The notes beneath the pieces were generated by a model, which was not told the DNA's origin, ran no database searches, and saw only the letters and a list, made by a program, of their open reading frames with translations. The translations under genes and the position numbers were made by a program. This document shows, piece by piece, positions 3,302 through 27,830 of a stretch of 32,627 nucleotides of DNA. The DNA is from Chiloscyllium plagiosum (lineage: Eukaryota): contig NC_057726.1 of the NCBI RefSeq assembly GCF_004010195.1, positions 69,064,458-69,097,084 on the forward strand, given 5' to 3'. Numbering within the stretch: the stretch's first letter is position 1; each line of letters starts with the position of its first letter.

Positions 3302-3497
3302 GTTAAATCTTTATTATAAGTGTCATCTGTTTGTCTATCAATTCTCTGGCTATCTAGTTTTCTCTCTGTTAAACATATATCTATCAGCATATCATCATCA
3401 CTTTCTGTCAATTGTATAAATGTAAGTGTGTCTCCCGCTCACAATTATGTCATATTCATTCTGATGTGCCAACGAGCGATAATATTTACACAATGGT

Positions 3498-3545
3498 ATT
3501 CGTAACTTTCACTGAGAAAAAATTCGTAACTTTCACTGAGAAAAA
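3498..3545. repeat. 24-bp perfect tandem duplication
   Basis: ATTCGTAACTTTCACTGAGAAAAA occurs twice head to tail. Confidence 0.9.
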
Positions 3546-3810
3546 AATGGCAAATGAAATCAAACCGAAAATGTAATAAATAAATCAACTGATATTGTTG
3601 CAGTTTTAATCAAATATTAGCAGGAAATATTGAGAAAAATGTATCTGCTGAATAACTGTGAGATAAATAGTAGTTTTTAATGTTTTCATAACCACAAAAT
3701 ATTCTTATTTTTGGAGAATACCTCATGTAATAGGATCGCTTAAATACATAAGCCGTCACACAGAATTCTGCTTTTGAATGTGATGACATTTCCCTTCTTC
3801 ATAAATTGTG

Positions 3811-4115
3811 CTGCTCCAGTTCCCATGAAGATTATTCACACAACATCCGGAGTGAGTTCATTTTCTTCTCGTGTACTTGAATTCAGAACGGCCGTATTTT
3901 ACATAAAATAATACCAACTCACTTGATATAAGAATGGTATTGAAATTCTGGCTGGATTTAAAACTATACAACGCACCAATGCACAGGGACTTTATGAAGT
4001 ATTCAGCTTATTAACCGAGATGCAACTTCGACACAGCAGTGTAGATTATACCTGCAGATTGTTGCATGTTTCACTCCTGACTCCAGCAATTACCATCTAC
4101 ATATTTTGCACCGAG
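3811..4115 (+). pseudogene. Upstream paralog pseudogene, C1 exon
   Basis: AAPVPMKII...VLEFRTAVFYIK*YQLT*YKNGIEILAGFKTIQRTNAQGLYEVFSLL...YTCRLLHVS is colinear with 13971-14276. Stops at 3909 and 3924 (conserved Trp to TGA), first Cys is Phe (3882), acceptor AG is TG. Confidence 0.9.
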
Positions 4116-5664: not shown

Positions 5665-6467
5665 TGTGATGACACAGAGGTTGAATCTCTGTGTTAATTG
5701 AAACCAAACACCCAGAAAAGCTCACCTTATCTCATAAAATGTGTGTGAGTGAAAGAGAACTCCTAATTTTCACGACTTAAAGAAAAATAACAATTTATTT
5801 TTCTAACTATATTCGTATACACAAAACAAAAATGATTAACAGGTCTAAACTTTTTTTGTTTCTTCACTAATCACTATCCGACTCTAATTGTAGAAAAATA
5901 CTGCTCCAGTAACACAATTATTAAACATAACATTAATTTAATCCCAAGTCCACACAGTCTCTCGTGCTGTCTTCTTTTTGGTCTTCTGGTTCTCCTGTCT
6001 TCTCTCTGGGTCTTCTTTCCTTTTACTATGATTATTCTCACAGGAAAAAGTACCTTTAGATAGATAGTGCCTTCTGAAATTTCCTTGCGAGCAAAATGTG
6101 TATTTCCTCTGGTGGCCTTTGCTCTTCAGCTCTACAGCAGTTGCCCTGATCAATTTTCAAAATGCCGATGACCTTTATACCCTCAATATCATTCCGTGTC
6201 ATTTGTCCACTGTTGTCAATACAATAAATTCAAACTCAACTGGGTTTTATTATCCTGGACATAATTTAAGTTAATTAGTTAAATTTGAATTGTTGTCAAA
6301 ACTGCAACCAACATGCAGGTATCCATTTAACAGCATGTATCTATTTTGGAATAGCCTGTCTCTTAGCTGTTATATTCTCGCAGTGTAGCTGTACTTTAAC
6401 TTTACTTTACAATTCAGAAAACACTTTTTATCTTAAAGTGAATATGCACACTTTTGACTTTGTAACA
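5665..6467. mobile_element. Possible solo LTR inserted in a CR1 3' end
   Basis: TGTGATGA...TTGTAACA termini; CR1 3' sequence appears continuous across it; no TSD seen. Confidence 0.35.
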
Positions 6468-7828: not shown

Positions 7829-8412
7829 CCTAACATGGTTCTGGTCAATCACAATGGCAAAGACACCACTTTCCTCAGTACAGCTGGCTGTGACAAATGA
7901 CCAACTTCTCTCTCAGAATTCTTTGGAAGGATGCCACTGTTAATCACTGATGGTATTTGAGCCTTATTTAGAGATGACCATTGATCTGTCGCACCTTCCC
8001 CGAGGGAGAAAAATGCTCGAGACAAGTGCTGTCCATTCAAATGTGGTAGATTGAGTTGGTGCATTTGCTGGTGAATTCCCAAGTATTTTCACTAATCTCA
8101 ATAGATAAAAAAAACAGTTTTAGTCGATGGTCTTCATTGGGACCATTCTGTACACCAGCACTACCTGTTGTTTATAGCCCAGGTGAAAATTTGATTCAGC
8201 CTGTTGTCAATATGTCCCTTCATCCACAGATAACAGTTTCTATTGGAAAGCACATTCTCATGAAATCCTGCAGTTGTTTAAGTTTCACTTAATACCGAAT
8301 GTATCTTTCGTCATCAGTTCATGCTAATTGAATTAATTCTAGTTGTCTCCACTCCCCCTTGGAAAAGCACGCTAACTTCATGTTATCTCATTTTTAAAAA
8401 AAATAGCAAAGT

Positions 8413-8540
8413 ACCTTAATGAAGGGTTTTTGCCCGAAATGTCGATTTTTCTGCTCTTCGGATGCTGCCTGGCCTGCTGTGCTTTTCCAGCACCACACTC
8501 CCGACTCTAATCTCCAGCATCTGTCATCCTCACTTTCGCC
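8413..8540 (+). mobile_element. Penelope-derived short insert with degenerate hammerhead core
   Basis: TTAATGAAGGGTTTTTGCCCGAAATGTCGA followed by the family body. Confidence 0.7.
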
Positions 8541-11916: not shown

Positions 11917-12368
11917 AAGCCAAGAATGCTTTTTCTTTGAAAGGGAAATTGTTGTATCCTGTGGCTGAATTGAAAGTCTGAAAATTGAAATTCTGAGAAA
12001 AATGTTCTCAAAGAAAGTACTGTATATTATTGTTGTGTGGACACCGGTAAAAGAACAACAAACAATGGGGTTTTGTGGATGTCCAGCCGATATTACACCT
12101 AAATCTAGTGGATCATGAGTGCACACGGATGATAGCAGTAGTTTCACCATCGAGGCCTAGACTTTGCTATAACCGCAGGTGACTATCAGTGTTAGCATTT
12201 CCGCTTGCCATTACGACAACAAGATCCTATTTGAAAACGCATGCATGTTGTCCACTCGGCAAGGAATGGGTCACGTGCTTCTTGACTTCTTTTGGCGCAA
12301 GTGATTAATATTGACTCTTAACTGACGTTCCAACGAATGTTCATCAGTGTCTTTTTTATATCAAATGT

Positions 12369-12450
12369 ATGATCTGCAAGATTGGCGTTGTCGCTATGTT
12401 TGTGAGTGGATCACTGTTAAATATATGGTTTTTGTGCATTTCATATCCAG
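12369..12450 (+). CDS. SIRP-like V-C1 IgSF receptor, exon 1 (signal peptide)
   Basis: ATG at 12369 gives MICKIGVVAMFVSGSLLNIWFLCISYP, a hydrophobic leader, ending in a phase-1 donor CAG|GTACAC that matches the phase of the V exon. Confidence 0.75.
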
Positions 12451-12772
12451 GTACACGCTCCTTCTTGCAGTGTTTGAAATGTCCTTTATAAGACAGAAGA
12501 ATAATTGAACTGTTATTTGACGGATAATCTGGCAGTTTTTGTTTTGTATGTTATTTTTCACACCAATGTTCCTTGTCCTAGGAATCCTGTGGTTAAGTAA
12601 AAATACATTTGCGATAATTCATTTCGGAGAGAAATTCAGATAGTGGAGCAGAATTCAAACAGCAAGGCATGCTAAATTCCTACCGTACAAGTGTACTGAA
12701 TTAATGATGCTACTTCGTGGTGTAATCCATTCTCCCTGCCGAATCAGTGTATTTGCCTTTTGTTAATAGCAG

Positions 12773-13081
12773 TTGTGTGCACTTCGGACAATGGTATTCC
12801 AGATATTATGCAAATAAAGACCCTGATTACTGCAAGAGTTACCATGCGATGCCCCTTCCCTTATGAACTCAATCATTCAAACATCAATGTTTTATGGTTG
12901 AGAGAAGGTAATAAGATGCTTCTGGAGGAGGATGGCAGACTTCTCCTTAATGTAAAGAAAGGTGGAGCCTACCTTCATCTCTTCAATGTGACTGTCCTGG
13001 ACGCTGGAATATATTATTGTATAGTCAAATATCACCATCAAACCGTTTCTCATAAACCCGCTGCTCAGCTTGTTGTCTACG
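12773..13081 (+). CDS. SIRP-like receptor, exon 2 (Ig V-set domain)
   Basis: Open frame with V-set hallmarks: VTMRC (B-strand Cys), VLW (C-strand Trp), AYLHLFNVTVLDAGIYYC (DxGxYYC) and QLVVY G strand. Polypyrimidine tract with TAGCAG acceptor; phase-1 donor G|GTTAAT at 13082. Confidence 0.92.
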
Positions 13082-13518
13082 GTTAATGTCACCACAGTTA
13101 AACGTTAGGTTTTCGTTCTATTGAACAGTGAATATGCGTGGGTAGTTACTTTTCAGAAAAAATGCAGTGCATACAAAATTGTTCACTTCTTGCAACGGCA
13201 TGTTCATTAATTTCGTTAAAACAGCATCATCACCATTAGCAAATGGTATTGAAATTTGTGTTGAATACAAAGTTAATGCAAGACTTCCAAGTGAAGTACG
13301 TTTTACAGTTTAAGCGTGAGATAACAGAGGAAATTGCTGCGAGGTTATCGGCATTGTTAAACATTTTAAATGTCATGTTGTTTTCTGCTTTGAAAAACAA
13401 AATTCCTATTCCCCTTGTTGGGACTCCGGCTGTCTCGTTTTCCATGATTCAGTTTCCAAACCGATCATTGCGAGCAGGTTGCAGTATGGCAACTCAAATA
13501 GATTTGTATTAATTAATA

Positions 13519-13735
13519 AAAGAAAATTACTGCGGATGCTGGAATCTGAAACCAAAAGAGAAAATGCTGGAAAATCTCAGCAGGTCTAGCAACATCTATA
13601 AGGAGAGAAAAGAGCTGACGTTTCGAGTCTAACTGACCCTTTGTCAAAGCTTTGACAAAGGACCAGTTAGACTCAAAACATCAGCTCTTTTCTCTCCTTA
13701 CAAATGCTGAGATTTTCCAGCATTTTCTCTTTTGG
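13519..13735. mobile_element. Palindromic Penelope-derived insert (intron 2)
   Basis: Inverted arms centred near 13650 (CTTTGTCAAAGCTTTGACAAAG); 16-bp TSD TTTGTATTAATTAATA at 13503-13518 and 13736-13751. Confidence 0.85.
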
Positions 13736-13970
13736 TTTGTATTAATTAATATGGTCCGAAGGTAATATCCAACATACAGATGATGAATCAATTGCATAAC
13801 GAGGTCGCTACATGGTAAAAGCAATAGCAACCCCTACCAGTATAAATAATAATAATTTGTGCACTGGCCTCCCCAGAAATAAATCTGTTGGATCGTTCAG
13901 TAAACCTTTTAAGTATTAGAGTAGAAGTACAATGCCCACATTTATGTGAATGTTGTTATTTACAATGCAG

Positions 13971-14276
13971 CTACACCAGCTCCCCTAAAACTTGTATTGG
14001 TACGTTCCGAAGACACTCCGCCTGCTTCTTCCAAATTACAATGCAGGACATCTGGCTTTTTCCCAGAAGACTATAACCTTACTTGGCACAGACACGGGAC
14101 ACAAATCTTCACTGGGTTTAGAAACATAAAACAGGCAAATGGCGAGGGTCTTTATGAAGTTGTCAGCTCCTTGGACATGTCAAAGTCACCCGGGAACGGC
14201 ATTGTCTACTCGTGTCAAGTATATCACGTTTCGAGCTCATTTCCAGCAAATGCTAGTTACACTGTTATGAATGAAG
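13971..14276 (+). CDS. SIRP-like receptor, exon 3 (Ig C1-set domain)
   Basis: LQCRTSGFFPEDYNLTW...NGEGLYEVVSSL...YSCQVYH has the C1-set motifs CxxxGFxP, W and YxCxVxH. Acceptor TGCAG at 13970; phase-1 donor AAG|GTAAGA. Confidence 0.93.
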
Positions 14277-14509
14277 GTAAGATTCCATGACACGTTGTGC
14301 GGGAATCTTTCAAATATCGTTGAAAAAGGAAAAATAAGTACAAAGTGATTACTGCAGTTAGTTACCTCAGATTGTGTCAATCCCGAAGTTTGATACTGTT
14401 GTATGATTAAAGATTTCCTTTCTTCGTCTAACTCAGAATTTGTGTGGTATATTGTCACGTGGGTGACATCTAACAGTGGATATTCGTCACCGAGCGTTCC
14501 CATCATTTA

Positions 14510-14682
14510 GGTAAAAACAATGACTGCAGATGCTGGAAACCAGATTCTGGATCAATGGTCTGGAAGAGCACAGCAGTTCAGGCAGCATCGAGGAGCTTCA
14601 GCAAAATCGACGTTTCGGGCAAAAGCCCTTCATCAGGAATCCTGAATTGCTGTGCTCTTCCAGACCATTGATCCAGAATCTG
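14510..14682. mobile_element. Penelope-derived insert with inverted arm
   Basis: Arm 14538-14582 is inverted at 14641-14685; 14-bp TSD GTTCCCATCATTTA at 14496-14509 and 14683-14696. Confidence 0.85.
14604..14640 (-). ncRNA. Minimal hammerhead ribozyme motif
   Basis: Minus strand reads AUUC-CUGAUGA-A-GGGC-UUUU-GCCC-GAAA-C-GUC-GAUU: intact catalytic boxes, 4-bp stem II, vestigial stem III, GUC cleavage triplet. Confidence 0.7.
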
Positions 14683-14789
14683 GTTCCCATCATTTATTTA
14701 AAGATATAATGTTGAAATTCACTCTCGAAGATAGTGTTAAATTCAATAACTGGAAATGTTACAGAGGGACAAAGAGATGGATGGAATAC

Positions 14790-15250
14790 CATCACTTTAT
14801 ACAGCACGGAAGAAGCCGTTCAGTCTATTGAGTGCAGCCCACCTATTTACGATAATCATACTTCTCAGCATTTGGCCGATCACCTTGAATGTTTTGACAT
14901 TTTAAGTGCTCGACCATGTACATTTCTTAAAAAGGTTTACCACCTGTATTACCTTCTCAGGAGTGTATTCCTGATACCCAACAGCCGCTCAGTGAAAAAT
15001 CAATCCTCAATTTTGCTCTGAACCTCTTACCTTTCCTGTAAAATACCTCTCATTGTCCACCCTTCACCTAAAGAGAACAGTTGCTTTTAATCCACCCTGT
15101 CCATGCTTTCATAATTATGGACACCTCAGTCAAGGTTTCCCACAACCGTCTTTGTTCCAAAGAAAACAATCTATGCTTCTCCAAACTTTTCCGAGCTAAA
15201 ATGCTCCGATCCTGACAGCATCCTGGTGACTCTCCCCAACGTAAACAAAT
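14790..15250 (-). mobile_element. CR1-clade LINE 3' end, decayed
   Basis: Resembles the other CR1 3' ends in the window (CATCCTGGTGA motif, 3' UTR). Confidence 0.6.
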
Positions 15251-16721
15251 CTTTCCGTATTGTTATGCTGAAAATACCTAACGGACTGTGTGTTAAGATC
15301 AGATTGAAACGATTGCAAGAAGACGTGTACACATTGTTTGGTTAATTTATTTGGTCAATACCTCATGCATCTATCAACCAATAGTTGACACTTTCAATTA
15401 TGGATAAGTATTAACGATAAATGGTTAGTTTAAAATACTCAGATATATGTTCGGCTCGTTGGGGACTTTGGCGATGGCAACACTTGGAGCTGTATCTCAG
15501 ACTCCACCGTGATGGTTTCACGAACTCCAGCCTAATGGTGAAAGTTCACCGAATTGGATAAAGTCCCGATATTAATACTATTTTGGATCTACTGTTACAT
15601 GCTATGTCAGCACTTCAGAGTCCTTCCAGTACTTTTTCAGGTTTTCCACTGGGAGAAAACACGCTGAAAAAAGATCTTCCAGGTGGCTCCTTTTTAACTG
15701 CACAATATTCTGTTCCCCACCCAGTCAAGCCCATACAGTTACCTCCCAGTCAAAGAAGGTTGTTTTTACACTTGTCATTTTCCACTTGTTTTCAATTGCT
15801 GATTTTCATGTCGAATTAGCCCTTAGTGATTAACCCTCAATGGTTTAGTTTGAAGGAATCACTTTAAGCACACGCGACACACATTGATATCTTCAAAGCC
15901 TTATCCAAACACGCACATACTGCTAAATATCTCCAAGTTGGTTAAACATGCGATATAGTTCACAGGCCATTACACAAATACATAAAGATGAAAAACAATT
16001 ATCAATCGTGTAACAATTGGAGACCATAAGAGTGAGAGTACTGGTGAAGCTTTTGATGACCACCTTCTTAAAGATAACCCACCAATGACGCAGAGGAAGG
16101 GTTCCTACATTGTCTGATTTGCCAACCTATTGATTATGGTTGGAAGCGATGGCCCTTTCTTGCCATAAGAAACCATGGTGTATTGTTGCCAAATGAGAAC
16201 GAATCTGCTGATGCTGTGCAAGGAAAGCCTGCAATTTCTTAATTATCGCTTCTGGACATAAACTAGTCAATCGATTAGTCATGCAATGCATAGTTATCTT
16301 CTCCCATTCCTCGATTATGTAGTGTTTAAACCTAACTTCATCATGGATAACATATCTTTTGTCCTGAAATGAGTTGGCAGGTGGTTTCTCTCTCTTATCA
16401 TTAAGGTGGACACTGTGAGGGCTGGCTAAACACGTGGGGTTCAGGCCAATTTCATGGATATTGTATCATTGATTGGCAACTTTCTCCCTGTGCAAAGACC
16501 CCCGCTACACTGCAAAACAAAATGATTCAAAGGTCGTAGAATATAAGGGGCATATGAGGCATTCTCGCTATTGTTCCTATTGGGTCCAATTGCTGTTATC
16601 CAGCCATTTTCCATGAATTCCCCAAACAGATGAGGTAGAGAGCTAAACAGCAAACATAATTCCAGGTATATGCTATTAAAAAGAAACAGCATTACATGCC
16701 GTGGCATTGCAATTACTCTTT

Positions 16722-17753
16722 TTTTTTTATTTCAAAAATATACTTTATTCATAAAATACTTTGATGATCTGTACAACTGGACATGCCATACATATGTAAA
16801 CATTCCATTTGTTTGCATACCGAAAACATTCCTATTTACAGGTCTGTACGATTACATTTTTAGCTGAGGCGTCAGCAGAGCCCAAATGACTGCGCGGGCC
16901 CCCTGTTCTTCTTTAGGCAGGCAGTTGTTCCATGGTGGTCTTTCCCCACCGCGCCTTGGCGGCAGCTGCCCCAAGCTTCAGCGCGTCCTTCAACACGTTG
17001 TACTGGACCTTGGAATGTGCCAGTCTGCAACACTCAGTCGGGGTCAACTCCTTCAGCTGGAAGATCAATAGGTTTCGGACCACCCAGTTCGTCTCGGTGT
17101 GCATCCCGGGAAACAGGCCGTAGAGCACGGAGTCCCGCGTCACGGCGCTGCTCGGGATGAACCTCAACAAACACCACTGCATTCCTCTCCACACTTCTTC
17201 TGCGTAGGCACATTTCAGAAGGAGGTGTGTGACAGTCTCCTCCCCCCGCAGCCGCTTCCAGGGCAGCGTGCGGTGCAGCTGAGAGTGCGGGCATGCATAA
17301 AGGATCTCACAGGCAGAGCCCTTCTCACCACCAGCCAAGCCATGTCTTGGTGCTTGTTGGAAAGTTCTGGCGATGAGGCATGCGAAGGGTCTCAAGAACT
17401 ACGTGCTGACCACTTCCTGATGGACTTGTGGTCAAAGGTGTTTTTCTTCATAAACTTCTCCATGAAGGACAGGTGATACGGAACGGTCCAACGACTTGGA
17501 GCGTTCCGCGGCAGCGAGGCCAGGCCCATCCTTCGCAACACCGGGGACAGGTAGAACCTCAGTACGTTTGCGTACCGGGGATCCACGCACAGCTTGATGC
17601 AGCCACACACAAAGGTGGCCATCAGGGTGAGAGTGGCATTGGGTGTATTTTTTCTCCCTTTGCCCAGATCTTTGTACAGCGAGTCCCTTCGGACCCGGTC
17701 CATCTTTGACCTCCATATAAACTGGAAGATGGCCCGGGTGACTTCAGCGGCAC
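16722..17753 (-). mobile_element. 5'-truncated Tx1-clade (L1-Tx1) LINE
   Basis: ORF2 C-terminal remnants (LRFYLSPVLRRMGLASLPRNAP; zinc finger EETVTHLLLKC), T-run tail at about 16719-16728, and 10-bp TSD ATTACTCTTT at 16712-16721 and 17754-17763; GC-rich relative to flanks. Confidence 0.9.
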
Positions 17754-17979
17754 ATTACTCTTTAATAAGTCAGGCATAAATGTTAAATTAGTAATGGTGA
17801 GGTGAAATAATTGTTTCCAAGACAACGGGTGTCTGGATAGCAATACACTATTTACTTAACGCCATTGTTCTAAACTATACATTTAGGGCAGACTACAATG
17901 TATTCAGTTAGCCTCAGCACTGAGATTCATCTGGGTATGATACATTTCCCGAACTGTGTTATTTGTAAACTTCCAAGCC

Positions 17980-18317
17980 GTGTCAGTCAAATGTCAATTT
18001 GCTAATTCACTGTATGCTAATGATTTGATCCATGCAGCAAATAGTTTTGTAGCTTCCTTGGACAGTTGCCCAGCTTGAGCAATTTTGTTTTGTTGAGTCT
18101 CAATACCCATGGAAATTAATGCACCTATTCGCAATTTTGTTTTGTTGAGTCTCAATACCCATGGTGTCAGTCAAATGTCAATTTGCTAATTCACTGTATG
18201 CTAATGATTTGATCCATGCAGCAAATAGTTTTGTAGCTTCCTTGGACAGTTGCCCAGCTTCAGCAATTTTGTTTTGTTGAGTCTCAATACCCATGGAAAT
18301 TAATGCACCTATTCGCA
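17980..18317. repeat. 154-bp duplication with templated spacer
   Basis: 17980-18133 matches 18164-18317 with one mismatch; the intervening 18131-18164 copies 18079-18112. Confidence 0.9.
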
Positions 18318-18649
18318 CCTTTGTTCAACCTAGAATAGAGAAGAGGACATCTCTCCTGCCTCACCTCTGTAATGTCAACGGTATGTGTAAAGAGCGGTAA
18401 TGGGAAGTTAAATTATTTGAACACTAGGGTATAGGTGTCATACAACTGCTGATGATTGGGTAACGGTGTGGCATTTAATGGACCTGGATGCATGGTTCAT
18501 CATAACAATCCTCAATATGTTTTATGCCCTTTTATCTCTGTATCGTTTTGGCTGATGAGTTAGTCACCCCGCATATGAGCCACTGTCCAAGCCAACATCT
18601 CCCTGAGTCGCTGTACCACGAAGTCATAGTAAGAAACTAGTTCTGTGGT

Positions 18650-19490
18650 GAAGTGTAATTAGGATAAGTGAGAGATGTGCCTTCTCTAAAATCCTAACAT
18701 CTCCACAAAGCCTTGGGTCATTTCTTTAGCTATCCGGGCTTACACCTCACTGGTTTTGTTTCTTACTCTGTCATAATTCAGACGGTCTCCTCGGCCCATT
18801 GTGTTCTCAGCAAAATAACATCTTGCTTTGGTCCTTGGATATTCTGAGGATTGATTTTGCAGACTTTATTCCGTAGGTGCTCAGTCAAAGTAGCTATCTC
18901 TTTGGCTACTACTTCCTCTGACAGGCCACACAGCAATATATCATCAATATAAAGGGTTATTTATGTCACCAGAGAGAGACAATTTCTCCAGATTCATGGC
19001 TTTAAACCATGGCAGAAAGTTAGACTGTGCAAGTTGCCTGCACAACCGACAACCCGGGAACTCTCTTTGCTCCCATGTGAAAGCAAACTGATTCTATGAA
19101 TTCTCAGTCGAGAGTGTAGTGCTCGAAAAGCACAGCAGGTCAGGCAGCATCCGACTAACAGGAGAATCATCATTTTGGGCATAAGCCCTTCATTGATTCT
19201 CCTGCTCCTGGGATGTTGCCTGGCCTGCTGTTCTTTTCCAGCAATACACACTCGACTCTGAGCTTCAGCATCTGCAGTCCTCACTTTCTCCCTTTGTGAA
19301 TTCTCACCAAGGACAAGAGAGCATGAGCTCAGTTGATTACAGCATGCCGTTCCCAATGACACCTGCTCCAGTAATGTTACAATGTCTGGGAGAGTCAATG
19401 CCAATCGTGGTGCATGTTGGTTTAACCGTCAGTCATCCACCACCATTCACGAGTTACCCTGTGCTCTCTTTCCTGTCCGCACAGGGCTGT
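18650..19490 (-). pseudogene. pol: Retroviral reverse transcriptase remnant
   Basis: DSPV...*MVVDD*RLNQHAPRLALTLPDIVTLLEQV, GNLHSLTFCHGL, ITLYIDDILLCG (YIDD at 18940-18951), KINPQNIQGPKQDVILLRTQW and FVEMLGF*RRHISHL are ERV-L-type RT motifs. Confidence 0.9.
19107..19296. mobile_element. Palindromic Penelope-derived insert within ERV RT
   Basis: Inverted arms; 10-bp TSD TGAATTCTCA at 19097-19106 and 19297-19306. Confidence 0.8.
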
Positions 19491-19494
19491 CGTA

Positions 19495-19712
19495 CTGGGA
19501 TAAAGTTAAAAATCACACAACTCCAGTTTATACTCCGACATGTTTATTTGGAAGTACAAGCTTTCGGAGCGGTGCACCTTCATTGGGTAGCTAGTGGAGT
19601 AGCTACCAGAGTTTAGAGCAAAAGATCATAGTGTCATAGAACTGATATTATATGTTGAATAAACCTAGATTGGTGTTAAGTCTTTCGACTATTAGAATGG
19701 GTTGCATGTTTC
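19495..19712. mobile_element. Second Penelope-like family fragment within ERV pol
   Basis: AAAGTTAAAAATCACACAAC...TTTATTTGGAAGTACAAGCTTTCGGAGC; a reverse-complement relative lies at 28480-28915. Confidence 0.6.
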
Positions 19713-19849
19713 CATTCTCAGCTCAGCTCAGCTTACACAGGGAGACAGAAGGTCGTACAAACCCATGCTGCCTCTATCCCTTTAATAATGTCTGTGATCT
19801 CCTTGTGCCCTCAATACGGCTTACCATTAATAATTCGTGAATGGGATGA

Positions 19850-20150
19850 ATTCCCACACAGCTTACCCAACTCTCACATTCATCCTTTATACACCAAAAC
19901 AAATTGGGGTCCATATTTCCAGCCCAGACACAACACCCATCCTTACAAAATTTTCATTTACGCTGCATATTAAGATAGATGCCATTCAAGGTGGTCTATC
20001 CCCAATTGCCAATTGCACCAGTGTCTGCACCACTGGTGTTTCTGCTCTCTCAAATCTATTTACAGTGCTTTTAGTTCCCACATGTCTGGACCGTATCAAA
20101 CAAGACCATAATGTGTTGTTTGCTTCCATTTCTCCAACAAATTCTGTTCG
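19850..20150 (-). pseudogene. pro: Retroviral protease remnant
   Basis: MVLFDTV (minus strand, about 20089-20109) is a degenerate LxDTG active site positioned between gag and RT. Confidence 0.45.
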
Positions 20151-20486
20151 GGATGTATGACCTGAGTGCACTCCCTCTTTTGATTGTATCTCAGTGTCCT
20201 GACCACCTTCCGAATGTAGGGGATTATTCAGTCTCCACATTCGCTCCAGTTCCTTTCATGTAGGGTACAGAAGGAACTCTGATACTCCTTTCCTTTTCTA
20301 GGGAATGGCATCTAAATGAGAATTTGTGTCTTACACTATGGGAGGAGTTGTTCCCAATCTCCTGCATGATCGTGGTGCACTTTTGTGACCACTAACTGTC
20401 CAAACAACATTTTCACTTCACCGACTGGTCTGCCCTGAGCTAGCTCCGGCAATGCCAGCAGCGTCCATTATGCAGGAGTTGAATTC

Positions 20487-21052
20487 TCATTCGGGTTGTG
20501 AAAATTTCCTGGACTTGTCCCTAGAAAATTTTTTGTGCGCAATCCTGTTTGTGCAGCTAACTCCAGAATCGCGCACTTCCCCGTGATATTGTATGCCACG
20601 GTGCAGTTTCCTGCTCGTAATCCATGAGTGGTCCGGATACTCAGTTCTCACTGCTGTACACACCCATGCAGCCAATGCCCCTGCTCCCTGCAGAGCATTA
20701 TGTATGGCTTCATATGCAGGCAAGGCTCCCGTACTCCAAAGCTTCTTATCCTTGAGAGAAACATTTAACGCCCTTGAGAGCTGAAACTGGGTTATCCAAG
20801 CTCCCCGGGACTCGCCTGCTTTCTGATAGAACATATTTCCCAATCCTACAATTCTGTCATTATGTAATCCGGCACAATTCGAGTATATTGTGGAGCATGC
20901 TGGCCATACCCCGGGGCTGCGCTAAGGGACACATTATCACCATTAGTGTCTTCTTCCCAATCAGTCCACTCATCCTCCAAATCGAACGAATACCAGTCCA
21001 ATGATCGGGACCTGATCAGTTCCTCTGAACTTACTGGTGTCTTGCCATACAT
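20487..21052 (-). pseudogene. gag: ERV-L/Fv1-like gag remnant
   Basis: DYIMTEL...GNMFYQKAGESRGAWI...ALNVSL...ALAAWVCTAVRTEYP resembles the ERV-L gag pattern YTxxEL...YxQKxGExxxxW as I recall it. Confidence 0.65.
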
Positions 21053-21354
21053 TGAGTAGTCATTTGTGTTGTTACTTCTTACAAAGTCCTTTGAATATCT
21101 TCACATACGTGCAGAAACTAATGTAGCCCAAGGCGAATGTCTCCATGCATCATAATATTAAACACAGTTTGATTATTATTTTTATATTCACTGGTAGTAC
21201 GTTATTTTTATTTGCTGGGAGGACATTTATTGTCGATGCCTAATTGCCAAGAGAGCAGTTAATAATCATTCAGTTAGCAGTGAGTCATTTGCAGGCCAGC
21301 TGACAATGGCAGAATTCCTTCCAAAAGAACATTAAGTAAGCTACCTGGTCTTAA

Positions 21355-21870
21355 AGTCATAGAGATGTACAGCATGGAAGCAGATCCTTCATTCCAACTT
21401 GTCTATGCCAACCCGATAACCTACATTAATTGAGTCCAGTTTGCCAGCATTTGTCCCATATTGCTCCAAATGTTTCGTATCATATACCCATCTAAATGTC
21501 TTTTAAATGTCGCAATTGTACGAGCCTCTATCCCTTTCTCTGGCAGTTCATTCCATACTTATACTACTCCCTGCATGAAAAAGTTACCCATTAGATCTCT
21601 TTTAAATCTTTCCCCTCTCACTTTACACCTATGCCTTCTAGTTTTGGACTCGCCTAACCTGGGGAAAATACCTTGATTATTCACCCTATCCATGGCCCTC
21701 ATGATTTTCTGTAAGGTCAACCTTCAGCCTCTAACGCTCCAATGAAAATAGCTCCAACCTATTCAACCTGTCCCTGTAGATTCTACCCTCAAACCCTGAC
21801 AACATCCTTCTAAATAATTTTTGAACCCTTTCAAGTTTAGCATATTTACGATTGCAAGGAGACCAGTGTT
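21355..21870 (-). mobile_element. CR1-clade LINE 3' end
   Basis: LERVQKLFRRMLSGFEGRIYRDRLNRLELFSLER is typical CR1 ORF2 C-terminal sequence. Confidence 0.85.
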
Positions 21871-22400
21871 TTAATGACAAACATTTCAGCATTTCACTGA
21901 ATTCAAATTTCACTACCTGCACTGGTGACATTAAAAATCCATGAGCCAAGAACATAGAGATTTGTATTGTTAAGGCAGTGCATTGAAACTGTGTAATTGT
22001 CTTTCCTCAGTTAGACTGGTCGCACTTCCAGGAAGATTTCATTTAAAATAGTCTCAGTTACTTTGTGCTCCAGAGAACATTGTCCCATTATAACTGATAT
22101 CTGATCTGAACTCTTTGTAATTGGATACTTCTGGTATTGGATGAATTAATTATCATTATTTTGATTAATTAAAAGGTGACAAATCAAATTTCTTCATCGC
22201 TGCTGATATTTTCATGACTTCTCACGATTTACTGTCTTTATATCCAACTTCATATAGGAAAGCTGACATATGCGATTGCATGGATAATATTAGAATGCTA
22301 ACCAGGCAGTTTAATGGGAAATGGAGCATGTGATATTTACATTTATGTGTATCTGGTTTCTGATACAACTTCTAACTTTAATTTTCTGTTCATCTCTTAG

Positions 22401-22514
22401 ATTTTGTCTCGAAAGTCAGTGTTGCTGTTTTTGCTGGATGGGCTGGTGGAGCACTTGCAAATCTATTCTGCATAGTGATAATTGTTAAGTGTCTCCTATT
22501 CATTATATCTAAAA
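22401..22514 (+). CDS. SIRP-like receptor, exon 4 (transmembrane)
   Basis: Acceptor TTCATCTCTTAG, phase 1; translates DFVSKVSVAVFAGWAGGALANLFCIVIIVKCLLFIISK. Donor is uncertain: 22515 (phase 1) or 22489 (phase 2). Confidence 0.78.
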
Positions 22515-22686
22515 GTATAAATATGAATGTACATGCTTAGTGAAATAAATTGATTAAATTGCCTTACCCTTGTCCAGTTAAAATAAGTGTACAATGTAAA
22601 ACTACTTGCAAGCATTTGTGTCACGTCAGCGCTAGCATTCCATGATAAGGTTCATTCCTATATTATTCTAAATCCCATCTTTTCAG

Positions 22687-22717
22687 ATCTGAAGGCAATC
22701 TAGTGAATTTCACTGAA
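22687..22717 (+). CDS. Candidate small cytoplasmic exon (ancestral or alternative)
   Basis: Acceptor CCCATCTTTTCAG; open as phase 2 to 0 (SEGNLVNFTE) with donor GAA|GTAATA, or an alternative donor at 22739. Entered in phase 1 it hits TAG after five codons. Confidence 0.35.
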
Positions 22718-22907
22718 GTAATACTTCCACAGCTTCAAGTCACATTTACATGTGTGCAATTGTGTTCAACATTTTGTGTTATATTCTGAGTCGACTTAGT
22801 CTATTGTAACTTGTGTCTGTGTGAATTGCATGGTAATTTGATGGCTTACAAATGAATACAAACATCATATCTCTCTTGACAATGAATACCAACTTTGTTG
22901 CCATCAG

Positions 22908-22951
22908 ATTCAAAGAAAAGGGCAACAAGTCCTACTCAACACAAAGATGAG
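22908..22951 (+). CDS. SIRP-like receptor, cytoplasmic exon (44 nt)
   Basis: Acceptor TTGCCATCAG and strong donor GAG|GTAAGG; open in two frames (NSKKRATSPTQHKDE or IQRKGQQVLLNTKMR). Confidence 0.72.
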
Positions 22952-23071
22952 GTAAGGCCTTTGACTTCACTTTGAAATTCATCTGCATGATTCAGACATT
23001 GCAATCAAAATAATCTGTTTCAAACTATCTGGATGAAGTCAAAAGTTTTACTGTCATAACAGAACTTCAGC

Positions 23072-23334
23072 TGAGTCAAAAATTGTGGTGCTGGCAAAGC
23101 ATAGCCATTCAGGTAGCATCTGAGGAGCAGGAGAGTTGATGTTTCGAACATAAGCTCATCATCAGGAATGATCAAGATGTTATGCTCGAAACGTCAACCC
23201 TCTTGCTCCTCGGATGCTGCTTATCTCAAAATGTCGACTGTCCAGTTCCTCGGATGCTGTCTGACCGGCTGTGCTTTGTCATCACCATACTTTTTGACTT
23301 TAGTCTCCAGCATCTGCAGTCCTCACTTTCTCTC
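23072..23334. mobile_element. Palindromic Penelope-derived insert
   Basis: Inverted arms; minus strand CUGAUGA-U-GAGC-UUAU-GUUC-GAAA-C-AUC at about 23137-23165. Confidence 0.75.
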
Positions 23335-24250
23335 AAAAGTGCATTTCGTCTTTAATATGAAAGGAAGATAGACAAAGAATTGGTTGAAAGTATTACAAAT
23401 TCTTACAACTATAATACTTGTCATGAGTAATGCTATCATTTATTAGTCACTCATGTTTCTGGGTTCACTTACAGCAACGTTGTTAATTAACTAATTTTTG
23501 TTATATTACAAGATGGGCATAGTTCGCTCGCCTGTTGTTCAACATGCTGTTCTGAAAAAAAAACTATCCCTAACACACCCCAAAACTCATTTGTCACAGT
23601 TGAGTGCTCATTAGTTTGCCAAACCTATATCCAGATTAAATCCCGTCATGCTCATTGCAAAACCCACGTGCGTTATTGCACCAATCTCTTTATTTTGCCT
23701 CTGCCTCACATTACTGCTATTGTTTGTAACTTATTAGTAACTACTACTGCTCCCTGCTGCTTGCTGTTACTTAGCTCCATCAGAGTATATCTCATTTGGT
23801 TGTTCCATCTGTGGTCCTTCTTGACTCGTTCACAGGTCCCATCCATTACTACTAGTGTAATACTACAATACAGTTTTCCCCTGCTATCTGAACGTTGAGC
23901 ATGCTTATGAAACCTTTCAAAAGCCAAAATGGCATAAAGTGAAGAACAATTAATTTATATTGGGAAAAAATTCACATTGTTTTCTTAAACGTGAACATTC
24001 TCTTCAGATTTCTTTCAGTTAGCGAAAGCAGGTAGTAATGTAAAAGTGAAGTGGCAAAATGTGACCTTTCAAAAAGCAGGGATGCCTGTATCATTTTTTT
24101 TCCCTTTGTCCAACCTGAATATCATTGAATAATCAGTTCACTTGAACATCCTGCAGTGTAATGGCAATTACACGATGGCCATTCATCTCTATTTATTTCA
24201 TTTTAATTATTTACCTTTTTGTAAGTGTGATGTGTATTGGCTTGACTGTA

Positions 24251-24529
24251 GATTAGATTAGACTACTTAAATTAGATTACTTACAGTGTGGAAACAGGCC
24301 TTTCGACCCAACAAGTTCACACCGACCCGCCGAAGCGCAACCCACTCAGACCCATTTTCCTACATTTACCCCTGCCGCTAACACTACAGGCAATTTAGCA
24401 TGGACAATTCTCCTAACCTGCACATTTTTGGACTGTGGGAGGAAACCGGAACACCCACAGGAAACCCACGCAGACACGGGGAGAATGTGTAAACTCCACA
24501 CAGTTAGTTGCTTGAGGCGGGAATTTGAA
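24251..24529 (-). mobile_element. V-SINE (HE1-like)
   Basis: (GATTA)n tail on + strand and well-preserved family core. Confidence 0.85.
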
Positions 24530-25013
24530 ATAGTCTTCTTTAACATGCTTCTAAGCTTTGCTAATGCGTACCATCATTTCCCCTGGTCTTGTCAGGTTGT
24601 AAAATGTCACCCCATATTTCAAGGAATCAGGTACAGAAGTGCAGATCTGAAGGGAACGAAGAATTCCCTCTGATAAAGCAATATTGCATAAAAAGTCTGA
24701 GACCATATATGTAAAATAAAATTGACTTTTTCTGTTTTGTTCTTTGAATGAAAGGAACACCAGTCGTTAATTGTGAAATTATCTCATTGCTATCTGTATG
24801 ACTGGGCTCCCAATCAATTGGTTGTGTCACATTGTTATCTCAACAAAAAATCTTCAGATAGAAATAAACAATTTGCTGGAAAATATTGCATGGCATTTTG
24901 TGTAAGTTAAATATTCTATGGAATTGGATTGCATATTCATTTTTACTAAAAGTCGTCATTGTCCATTTATTATAATTCAAGTAGTGTTATTGAAATGATT
25001 ATGGCGATTTAAT

Positions 25014-25266
25014 GGGCAGCATGGTGGCACAGTGGTTAGCAGTGTTGCCTTATAGTACCAGCGACCCAGGTTCAATTCCCTACCTCAGGCCACTGTCTGT
25101 GTGGAGTTTGTACATTATCTGCGTGGGTTTCCTCCCACAATCCAAAACTGTGCAGAGGTGAATTGGTCATGCTAAATCGCCCATAGTGTTGGGTAAATGT
25201 AGGGGGGTGGGTTGTTCTTCAGAGGGTCGGTTGGGCCGAAGGGCCTGTTTCCACACTCTAAGTGAT
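25014..25266 (+). mobile_element. V-SINE (HE1-like)
   Basis: GGGCAGCATGGTGGCACAGTGGTTAGC A box and GGTTCAATTCC B box. Confidence 0.85.
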
Positions 25267-25859
25267 CGAACTATTTCATTATTATTCAACTTACCGATAA
25301 ATTGTTGCTTCTATCAGTATAATCAACATATTATTTTATGCATTAAGTAAAGAAAAGTGAGGGAATGTCAGTTTCAAACCAATTAATGCACCAGATATTA
25401 TTATACTCACTTTGAGTTGTTCTTTTATTTCCAAAAGAAGAGGCATGTGGTTAAGTAACTTTATTTATCTTTGTAAAGGAAATTTGAATAATTCCTTCTG
25501 GATCTACAGTAAAAAGTACCCAGCATCTGTAATTTGAAACAAGATGTAATGTTGAACGATTTCTATACAAATGTTGTGCTCATGAAACTGAATTTCACAT
25601 AGTTCGTCTTCTGAGTTTTAACATATTTAACCATGAAGTTTCATAGTTTGCAACAATTAATAGAGTTACATCAGCAAATCAGGCACCTTTCTTTTTTTCC
25701 ACCGGCGAAAAGCTGCTACAGAAATGCTCACTGTTAAGAATGTAACAAAGTACCAGCAAACTCAAGGAGCCAAAGCAATTGTCATTGATTACTGTAGAAA
25801 CTTGGTTCTTGGCTCCAGAAAGTATAAATTAATGAATGTTAAACCCTAACTTTCCATAG

Positions 25860-25968
25860 GAAACAAGAGACAGCTGAAGACTGACTAACATACGCTGATC
25901 TTGAACTGGTCCATTCAAAGCAAGCTAAAATTCCTAAGCCACAGGATGAAAGAATAATATATGCAGAG
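25860..25968 (+). pseudogene. ITIM-encoding cytoplasmic exon interrupted by an in-frame TGA
   Basis: Acceptor CTTTCCATAG; motif frame reads KQETAED*LTYADLELVHSKQAKIPKPQDERIIYAE with TGA at 25882-25884; phase-0 donor GAG|GTATAT. All three frames stop before LTYADL. Confidence 0.75.
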
Positions 25969-26114
25969 GTATATCCAATTTTCTATTCACATATATGGAT
26001 ATAGTTATTATTTTCTTAATTACAACCATTTGGTTTTTTGGATAACGTTGGAAAATTCTCAGCTTTTTGTGAAACTTGAAGCAATAATGAACTATTTTCA
26101 ATGTTGTTTTACAG

Positions 26115-26243
26115 ACCAAAGAATGCATGAGTAAAAGTCAACTGACCTATGTTGCTCTGCATTTGAGTGGCCCCAAGTTAACATTGAAACCAGAACACAA
26201 AGATTCAACTCCATTGTATGCGGTGCTGAAAATCAGCAGCTAA
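26115..26243 (+). CDS. SIRP-like receptor, terminal coding exon with two tyrosine motifs
   Basis: Acceptor TTGTTTTACAG, phase 0; TKECMSKSQLTYVALHLSGPKLTLKPEHKDSTPLYAVLKISS*, containing ITIM LTYVAL and ITIM-like PLYAVL; TAA at 26241-26243. Confidence 0.8.
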   Translation, partial: TKECMSKSQLTYVALHLSGPKLTLKPEHKDSTPLYAVLKISS

Positions 26244-27641: not shown

Positions 27642-27830
27642 GAGAAAGTGAGGACTGCAGATGTTGGAGATCAGAGTTGAAGAGTGTAATGCTGGAAAAG
27701 CACAGCCAGTTAGGCAGCATCTGAGGAGCAGGAGAGTCGACACTTCGGGCATGCCCTAACATCAACTCTACTGCTCTCCGGATGCTGCCTGACTGGCTGA
27801 GCTTTTCCAGCACCACAGTCTTTGATTCGT
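27642..27830. mobile_element. Palindromic Penelope-derived insert
   Basis: Inverted arms; direct repeat AGAATAAAG at 27633-27641 and 27831-27839. Confidence 0.75.

Follow-up and report, generated by a model that had tools for sequence, protein, structure and literature searches.

A germline V-C1 receptor gene with a partly broken tyrosine-motif tail, from a large clustered family of cartilaginous fishes, in the shark Chiloscyllium plagiosum

We analysed a 32,627-nt stretch of the Chiloscyllium plagiosum genome (assembly GCF_004010195.1, contig NC_057726.1, here C17, positions 69,064,458-69,097,084), referred to below as the window. With moderate confidence, we read the gene that it carries as one for a germline surface receptor of a large cartilaginous-fish family, with an immunoglobulin (Ig) V domain and one C1 domain, likely inhibitory and predicted to skip a broken exon of its cytoplasmic tail, module T1. 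By its sequence the gene is among about 45 clustered V-C1 paralogues, a setting missed in the original prediction, which had been made from the window alone. The single gene is a derived and partly decayed member, and the family already stands in RefSeq under automatic names.

Exon structure of the window gene

All six exons of the original prediction were found where it had placed them, with GT-AG at every intron and phases of 1, 1, 1, 1, and 0. Joined in the order leader, V, C1, transmembrane (TM), and tail, they gave 984 nt, encoding 327 aa and a TAA without internal stops, and the predicted open join was thus confirmed. A seventh exon, T1, was added. Percentages below are matches to P0001, the RefSeq model LOC125459911 of the zebra shark Stegostoma tigrinum.

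12369-12450 (+), leader exon; GT donor, phase 1; aligned by eye with the leaders of family proteins P0003, P0004, and P0005
12773-13081 (+), unsplit V-type Ig exon; Pfam ig 29.8 bits; 65%
13971-14276 (+), single C1-set Ig exon; Pfam C1-set 38.9 bits; 71%
22401-22514 (+), TM exon; 61%; placed by hydropathy windows and family alignment
22908-22951 (+), short cytoplasmic linker exon; AG/GT, phase 1 to 0; PTQHKDE versus PTKHKDE in P0001
25858-25968 (+), broken tail module T1; 111 nt, phase 0-0; 73% to P0001 residues 301-337
26115-26243 (+), last coding exon, tail module T2, with LTYVAL (Tyr297), PLYAVL (Tyr320), and TAA; 59%

The V, C1, TM, and last exons matched P0001 in the same order, far beyond chance, and on this sequence match the gene is real and P0001 is likely its orthologue. 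For the linker exon the match to P0001 was weak (36%, E 0.24), and for the leader there was none; in P0001, C1 joins TM directly. No second Ig exon was detected in the C1-TM intron (14277-22400; best V and C1 scores below 0 bits), and the single C1 domain that had been predicted was upheld. The upstream in-frame ATG of the leader lies at 12369, and a second one at 12396 (Met10) is probably the family-homologous start (purine at -3; aligned with where P0004 and P0005 begin), which would give a protein of 318 aa. An out-of-frame ATG at 12364, five bases 5′ of the first in-frame one, could lower translation.

Two lesions in tail module T1

The gene had been credited with a SIRP-alpha-like tail of four tyrosines, in LTYADL, IIYAE, LTYVAL, and PLYAVL. 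Only the last two (at 26142 and 26211) lie in the 327-aa join, whereas LTYADL (25885) and IIYAE (25954) sit in T1, which that join omitted. Across the junction, IIYAE would become IIYAET, which does not fit the consensus of the immunoreceptor tyrosine-based inhibitory motif (ITIM). T1 carries an in-frame TGA at 25882-25884, immediately 5′ of LTYADL, where P0001 has an arginine codon and keeps the module open. In addition, its ancestral acceptor at 25856-25857 reads AT instead of AG, AG being present in the paralogue L001 in a gap-free alignment. Because the LTYADL exon is broken, a four-tyrosine tail is unsupported in the window copy; four tyrosines are found in the orthologue and two in the open splice route here. 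When the assembly was searched at the DNA level for another copy of the tail region, the one copy returned was the window itself.

Since T1 has 111 nt and phase 0-0, skipping it preserves the frame. By contrast, six of the six inclusion routes that we followed (the ancestral start and five nearby AGs) ended at 287-293 aa, which is 80-91 nt short of the last junction, and retained no tyrosine motif. Premature stops that precede the last junction by more than 55 nt normally trigger nonsense-mediated decay. The product of T1 skipping, the sole open splice route, retains one ITIM (LTYVAL) and one ITIM-like tyrosine (PLYAVL).

In the mechanism that we propose, in-frame skipping of T1 would yield a protein of 318-327 aa with both of these motifs, which would be expressed at the cell surface, where its V domain would bind a ligand. 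A Src-family kinase would then phosphorylate Tyr297 and Tyr320, which are 23 residues apart, and the tandem SH2 domains of SHP-1 or SHP-2 would be recruited, so that activation is damped. This is the course taken by ITIM receptors, namely Src-family phosphorylation followed by tandem-SH2 recruitment of SHP-1/SHP-2. Because the paralogues diverge, a varied set of self or microbial ligands is more likely than a single ligand of the CD47 type.

The clustered family and its relatives

A search of the shark's own genome with the C1 exon gave 53 matches (150 of 252 candidates scored), compared with 34 for the V exon and 99 for a relative as the query. Merged on C17, the matches comprised at least 45 C1 and at least 48 V exons, broken ones counted, in one cluster at 61.5-62.3 Mb and another at 68.9-70.7 Mb, with a lone gene at 57.5 Mb. 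At locus L033, two C1 exons (3413-3715 and 8232-8534, both -) translate identically; they are separated by 4.8 kb that holds one V, and either arose by a recent duplication or reflect an artefact of assembly.

Relatives were found in Callorhinchus, Heptranchias, Heterodontus, Scyliorhinus, Rhincodon, Chiloscyllium, Amblyraja, Mobula, Hypanus, and Hemitrygon, and the family thus spans sharks, rays, and a chimaera. RefSeq names these models automatically as SIRP-like, NCR3LG1-like, or uncharacterized; P0001, XP_007902824 of Callorhinchus, and XP_067853506 of Heptranchias are among the SIRP-like ones. RefSeq models of C. plagiosum itself matched two paralogues at 98-100%. A protein search with the window V exon retained none of 35 candidates. 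The window gene fits this chondrichthyan family in its short V, single C1, two-tyrosine tail modules, and cluster position. In a quick C1 tree of 101 columns, which did not include rows for SIRP, Ig light chain, T-cell receptor (TCR), or PRARP, it was sister to P0001 (SH-like approximate likelihood-ratio test, SH-aLRT, 98) inside an 11-row subfamily (SH-aLRT 99). The predicted ITIM-tailed receptor of a cartilaginous fish found support.

Our literature search found no description of the family; this is provisional, as some key work on related receptors was not covered. Term searches in the text of PMC3964593, in one of its supplement files, and in PMC11372145 likewise gave nothing relevant to the family.

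V domain and J-like end

At Pfam cut-offs of 21 for C1-set, 21.8 for ig, and 26 for V-set, the V exon passed the generic ig profile, and its V-set score of 24.2 was just below the cut-off. The domain is short, with 56 residues from Cys to Cys and 41 from Trp to Cys; Cys-Cys distances were 54-59 in all 19 family V domains compared. In fold predictions, the window V matched I-set, VNAR, and other Ig domains with no clear winner, and the generic Ig matches of the fold searches (I-set, VNAR, PD-L1, NKp44) all lay within about 1.5 Z.

The V exon is in one piece, taking in the G strand up to its GT donor, and the sole site in the window resembling a recombination signal sequence, at 5673, is 7 kb off. 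The non-rearranging, germline-complete V exon that had been claimed was therefore borne out, and a rearranging Ig or TCR identity was rejected, as no split V/J with such a signal occurs at the V exon. Of 19 family V exons sampled, 16 have a J-like GxG-T/S-xLxV end. The window V exon, however, ends in SHKPAAQLVVY and has lost the GxG motif, as P0001 has, and the window copy is therefore a derived member and not a relic from before RAG. The suggested relevance to pre-RAG receptor architecture accordingly holds for the family and not for this copy.

Tail modules and a paired-receptor layout

Family tails were built of repeated exon modules of 37-42 residues. Every module bears a pair of tyrosines spaced by 23 residues, which in T1 as in T2 occupy module positions 11 and 34. 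Members differ in how many modules they have and in which ITIM survives: P0001 has a canonical ITIM only in T1, P0005 has lost the T1 ITIM tyrosine, and L001 both T2 tyrosines. The Heterodontus model P0009 has a V without C1 and four tail modules, the highest number observed, as a repeated pair.

Under a loose pattern, 34 of 75 family proteins had a tail resembling an ITIM or an immunoreceptor tyrosine-based switch motif, three of them with an arginine-type TM by eye. Six combined an arginine-type TM with a short tail (five Arg, one Gln), 22 had a TM without a motif, and 13 had no TM. TM exons of this activating type occurred in the shark's own genome at L017:7301-7405 (+), L047:2116-2217 (-), and L044:567-674 (-), the proteins of the L017 and L047 finds having near-identical counterparts in the training set. 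They carry Arg near the outer end (Gln in the L044 variant) and Asp-His at the inner end, and are common to different subfamilies; none was found in the window. Since ITIM-tailed and arginine-TM members are both present, a paired-receptor family is likely, and in sequence the layout looks like one. The arginine-TM, short-tail members may serve as activating partners.

Functional gene, pseudogene, or rare allele

Several points weigh against a T1-skipping inhibitory receptor. The skip is predicted from genomic DNA, and phosphorylation with SHP-1/SHP-2 recruitment is proposed by analogy. PLYAVL has no hydrophobic residue at -2, and a cryptic AG two bases into T1 (25858-25859) could send transcripts to decay. 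Furthermore, a protein search with the C1 exon (178-2000 aa) surfaced no protein of the window gene, which is weak evidence, yet RefSeq models exist for the two same-species paralogues. The three nearest paralogues inspected were broken by frameshifts or stops in the assembly (L001 at 69.93 Mb, L004/L005 at 69.12 Mb, and L016/L017 at 70.06 Mb); for the L016/L017 gene, P0007 of Chiloscyllium punctatum is an open counterpart, and its break in the C. plagiosum assembly is therefore a recent loss or an assembly error.

These observations could also be accommodated by a young pseudogene, in which T1 would still be spliced through the cryptic AG, giving an early stop and decay, while the other exons have not yet been broken. 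We consider this possible but doubtful. The positions of the stops in every inclusion route, the missing annotated protein, the broken paralogues, and a C1 relic 8 kb upstream all agree with it, as does a recent loss of T1, inferred because the module still resembles that of P0001 so closely. On the other hand, the remaining 984 nt and 10 splice sites are free of lesions, and both lesions fall in the single exon whose loss is frame-neutral, the signalling tail being kept. Were the gene neutral throughout, both lesions would fall in T1 with a chance of about 0.02-0.03 in a rough model with four weightings. This figure is post hoc, and the chance of both sharing any one exon is 0.17-0.19. The clustering of lesions in T1 thus gives moderate, post hoc support for continued selection on the remaining gene.

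Alternatively, the lesions could be a rare allele or assembly errors, the species normally making a four-tyrosine form of 364 aa like P0001. The open T1 of the orthologue fits this, as do the single haplotype visible and the single tail-region copy in the assembly, but two separate substitutions 26 bases apart, of which the one in the Arg codon fits a CpG transition, in a window without any N make it unlikely.

Relation to SIRP

Mammalian SIRP-alpha, beta1, and gamma have a full-length ectodomain of V-C1-C1. The window gene did not have this layout, with its one C1. The label "SIRP-alpha-like" on automatic models is no proof of orthology, and the reading as a shark SIRP-alpha orthologue binding a CD47 orthologue is, in our judgement, very improbable. 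For it speak the paired tail tyrosines and a search of PDB with the family profile, in which SIRP-alpha ranked 4 and SIRP-gamma 11 among 12,139 matches. Moreover, a coelacanth V-C1-TM protein that carries LLYTTI and TVYAEI (P0159, Latimeria XP_005987622) had SIRP-gamma and SIRP-alpha as its best PDB matches, and its best matches in the shark genome were the C1 exons of the cluster, in C1 only and with a large family filling such lists.

Against it, V-C1 profile scores were 67.2 bits for SIRP-alpha, 70.4 for Ig lambda, 72.8 for kappa, and 56.1 for UrIg; as far as sequence affinity goes, SIRP is tied with Ig light chains. SIRP was not among the top 60 of a V-only profile search of PDB, the V-only and C1-only searches being dominated by multi-domain chains, and it was absent from the listed fold matches, a blank that speaks neither way. 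The single C1 and the short V also disagree with orthology. In PMC13262535, the origin of the SIRP family is placed at Tetrapoda.

The chromosomal setting gave no support either. We scanned 150 of 195 non-repeat open reading frames (ORFs) from 16 ten-kb flank samples, of which five had Pfam hits, two of them weak and ignored. C17 bears what we take to be RPL13, and exons presumably of AMFR-like, GST-like, and SLC38A8-like genes flank the clusters, whereas a gene that we assume to be NSFL1C-like lies on C20, apparently another chromosome; no family exon occurred within 100 kb around it. In human, as we presume, SIRP is linked to NSFL1C at 20p13, the other position assumed being 16q. The expected SIRP synteny was thus apparently not recovered. 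A Pfam search for CD47 found nothing, but control genomes were blank too, and it is uninformative, as is the search for a prodynorphin-family marker. At the edge of the first cluster (L065:3019-3321, -; C17, 62.32 Mb) lies a GST N-terminal exon, which we take to resemble the fish rho class.

The SIRP link of the original prediction is therefore unproven: it fails in the single C1 and apparently in synteny, and in sequence affinity SIRP and light chains tie. By analogy, the window gene likely works like SIRP-alpha without being proven a SIRP.

The transmembrane lysine

In a further reading, which we consider highly improbable, Lys262 lies within the membrane and pairs with an adaptor of the DAP12 type, and the subfamily is turning from an inhibitory to an activating role with the decay of its ITIM modules. 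Lys262 stands at the family's usual TM end and is followed here by seven further hydrophobic residues. In favour of this reading, the most hydrophobic 20-residue window contains Lys262 (2.62 versus 2.17 without it), and P0001, P0002, P0003, P0005, and P0008 share a Lys with a hydrophobic run after it. Against it, many other members have an ordinary cytoplasmic boundary lysine in this column, the family's apparent activating form uses the different, arginine-type TM exon, of which the window has none, and one ITIM is still present.

Other features of the window

The C1 relic of another family member lies upstream of the gene, and neither the window nor the 10 kb upstream of it held a partner V, TM, or tail exon for the relic.

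3810-4115 (+), C1 exon in decay from another member of the family, with two stops and without the first Cys

Within the C1-TM intron, ORF fragments at 16913-17754 (-) and 21731-22006 (-) are presumably remnants of long interspersed nuclear element (LINE) retrotransposons. A 184-base tandem duplication, 98% identical, occupies 17980-18325, and short dispersed repeats in palindromic copies occur at 13549-13738, 14530-14693, 19106-19257, and 27680-27822.

Significance and comparison with known receptor systems

The family is weightier than the window copy: it is large, clustered, and apparently paired, consists of germline V-C1 receptors mostly with a J-like V end, and lies outside the major histocompatibility complex (MHC), besides belonging to the oldest lineage having adaptive immunity. 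If undescribed, it offers testable candidates for natural killer or myeloid inhibitory receptors of sharks, and adds a new branch to the question of where SIRP and antigen-receptor-like V-C1 genes came from. We tentatively suggest, as a conjecture that we would not yet rely on, an undescribed paired-receptor system of about 45 VJ-C1 genes, on neither the MHC nor the NSFL1C chromosome, which would share a single-C1 ancestor with the coelacanth V-C1-ITIM gene and tetrapod SIRPs, the tail of the window gene being tuned by module loss. If true, the SIRP lineage would be pushed back to the jawed-vertebrate ancestor.

Like the window family, mammalian SIRP-alpha/beta/gamma have an unsplit V with C1-set domains, paired tail tyrosines, and inhibitory and activating members, apparently paired; the window family differs in having one C1 where SIRP has two, a shorter V, and apparently a different chromosome. 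SIRP-beta uses a TM Lys, whereas activating-type members here use a TM Arg. In SIRP the unsplit V exon goes with a J-like G strand; the window V exon is unsplit and has no J-like motif. Ig light chains share the V-C1 layout and the tied best V-C1 score, but they rearrange and have neither TM nor ITIM tail. B7-H6 (NCR3LG1) resembles the family in its V-C1 ectodomain and was fold match rank 5 of the P0001 model, but B7-H6-like proteins fell outside the window family in the quick C1 tree.

NITR, which have inhibitory and activating forms, resemble the family as clustered V(J) receptors. NITR identity was rejected on domain type, as the NITR second domain is I-type (bioRxiv 10.1101/2021.06.11.448072), whereas the second domain here is C1-set; the same paper reports holostean NITR clusters as flanked by runx1 and donson. 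Joined-VJ members of the Ig superfamily are listed in PMC11599192.

PRARP, which Fu et al. (2019) reportedly presented as a non-rearranging VJ-C1 receptor with inhibitory motifs, is alike by description; a VJ-C1-TM layout with inhibitory motifs recurs at family level, the window copy being without the J motif. The shark cluster differs in its about 45 copies and in lying outside the MHC: 50 MHC class I matches included none on C17, the chromosome-scale ones being on C37, and MHC linkage of the PRARP kind was not found. PMC10751288 counts NKp30 and PRARP as MHC-located VJ genes and UrIg as a non-rearranging VJ-C1 gene linked to MHC class III. UrIg (PDB 9dmx), the top fold match of the P0001 model, is likewise a shark non-rearranging V-C1 protein, but differs from the window family in its several C domains, as given in the 9dmx title, and in its MHC class III linkage.

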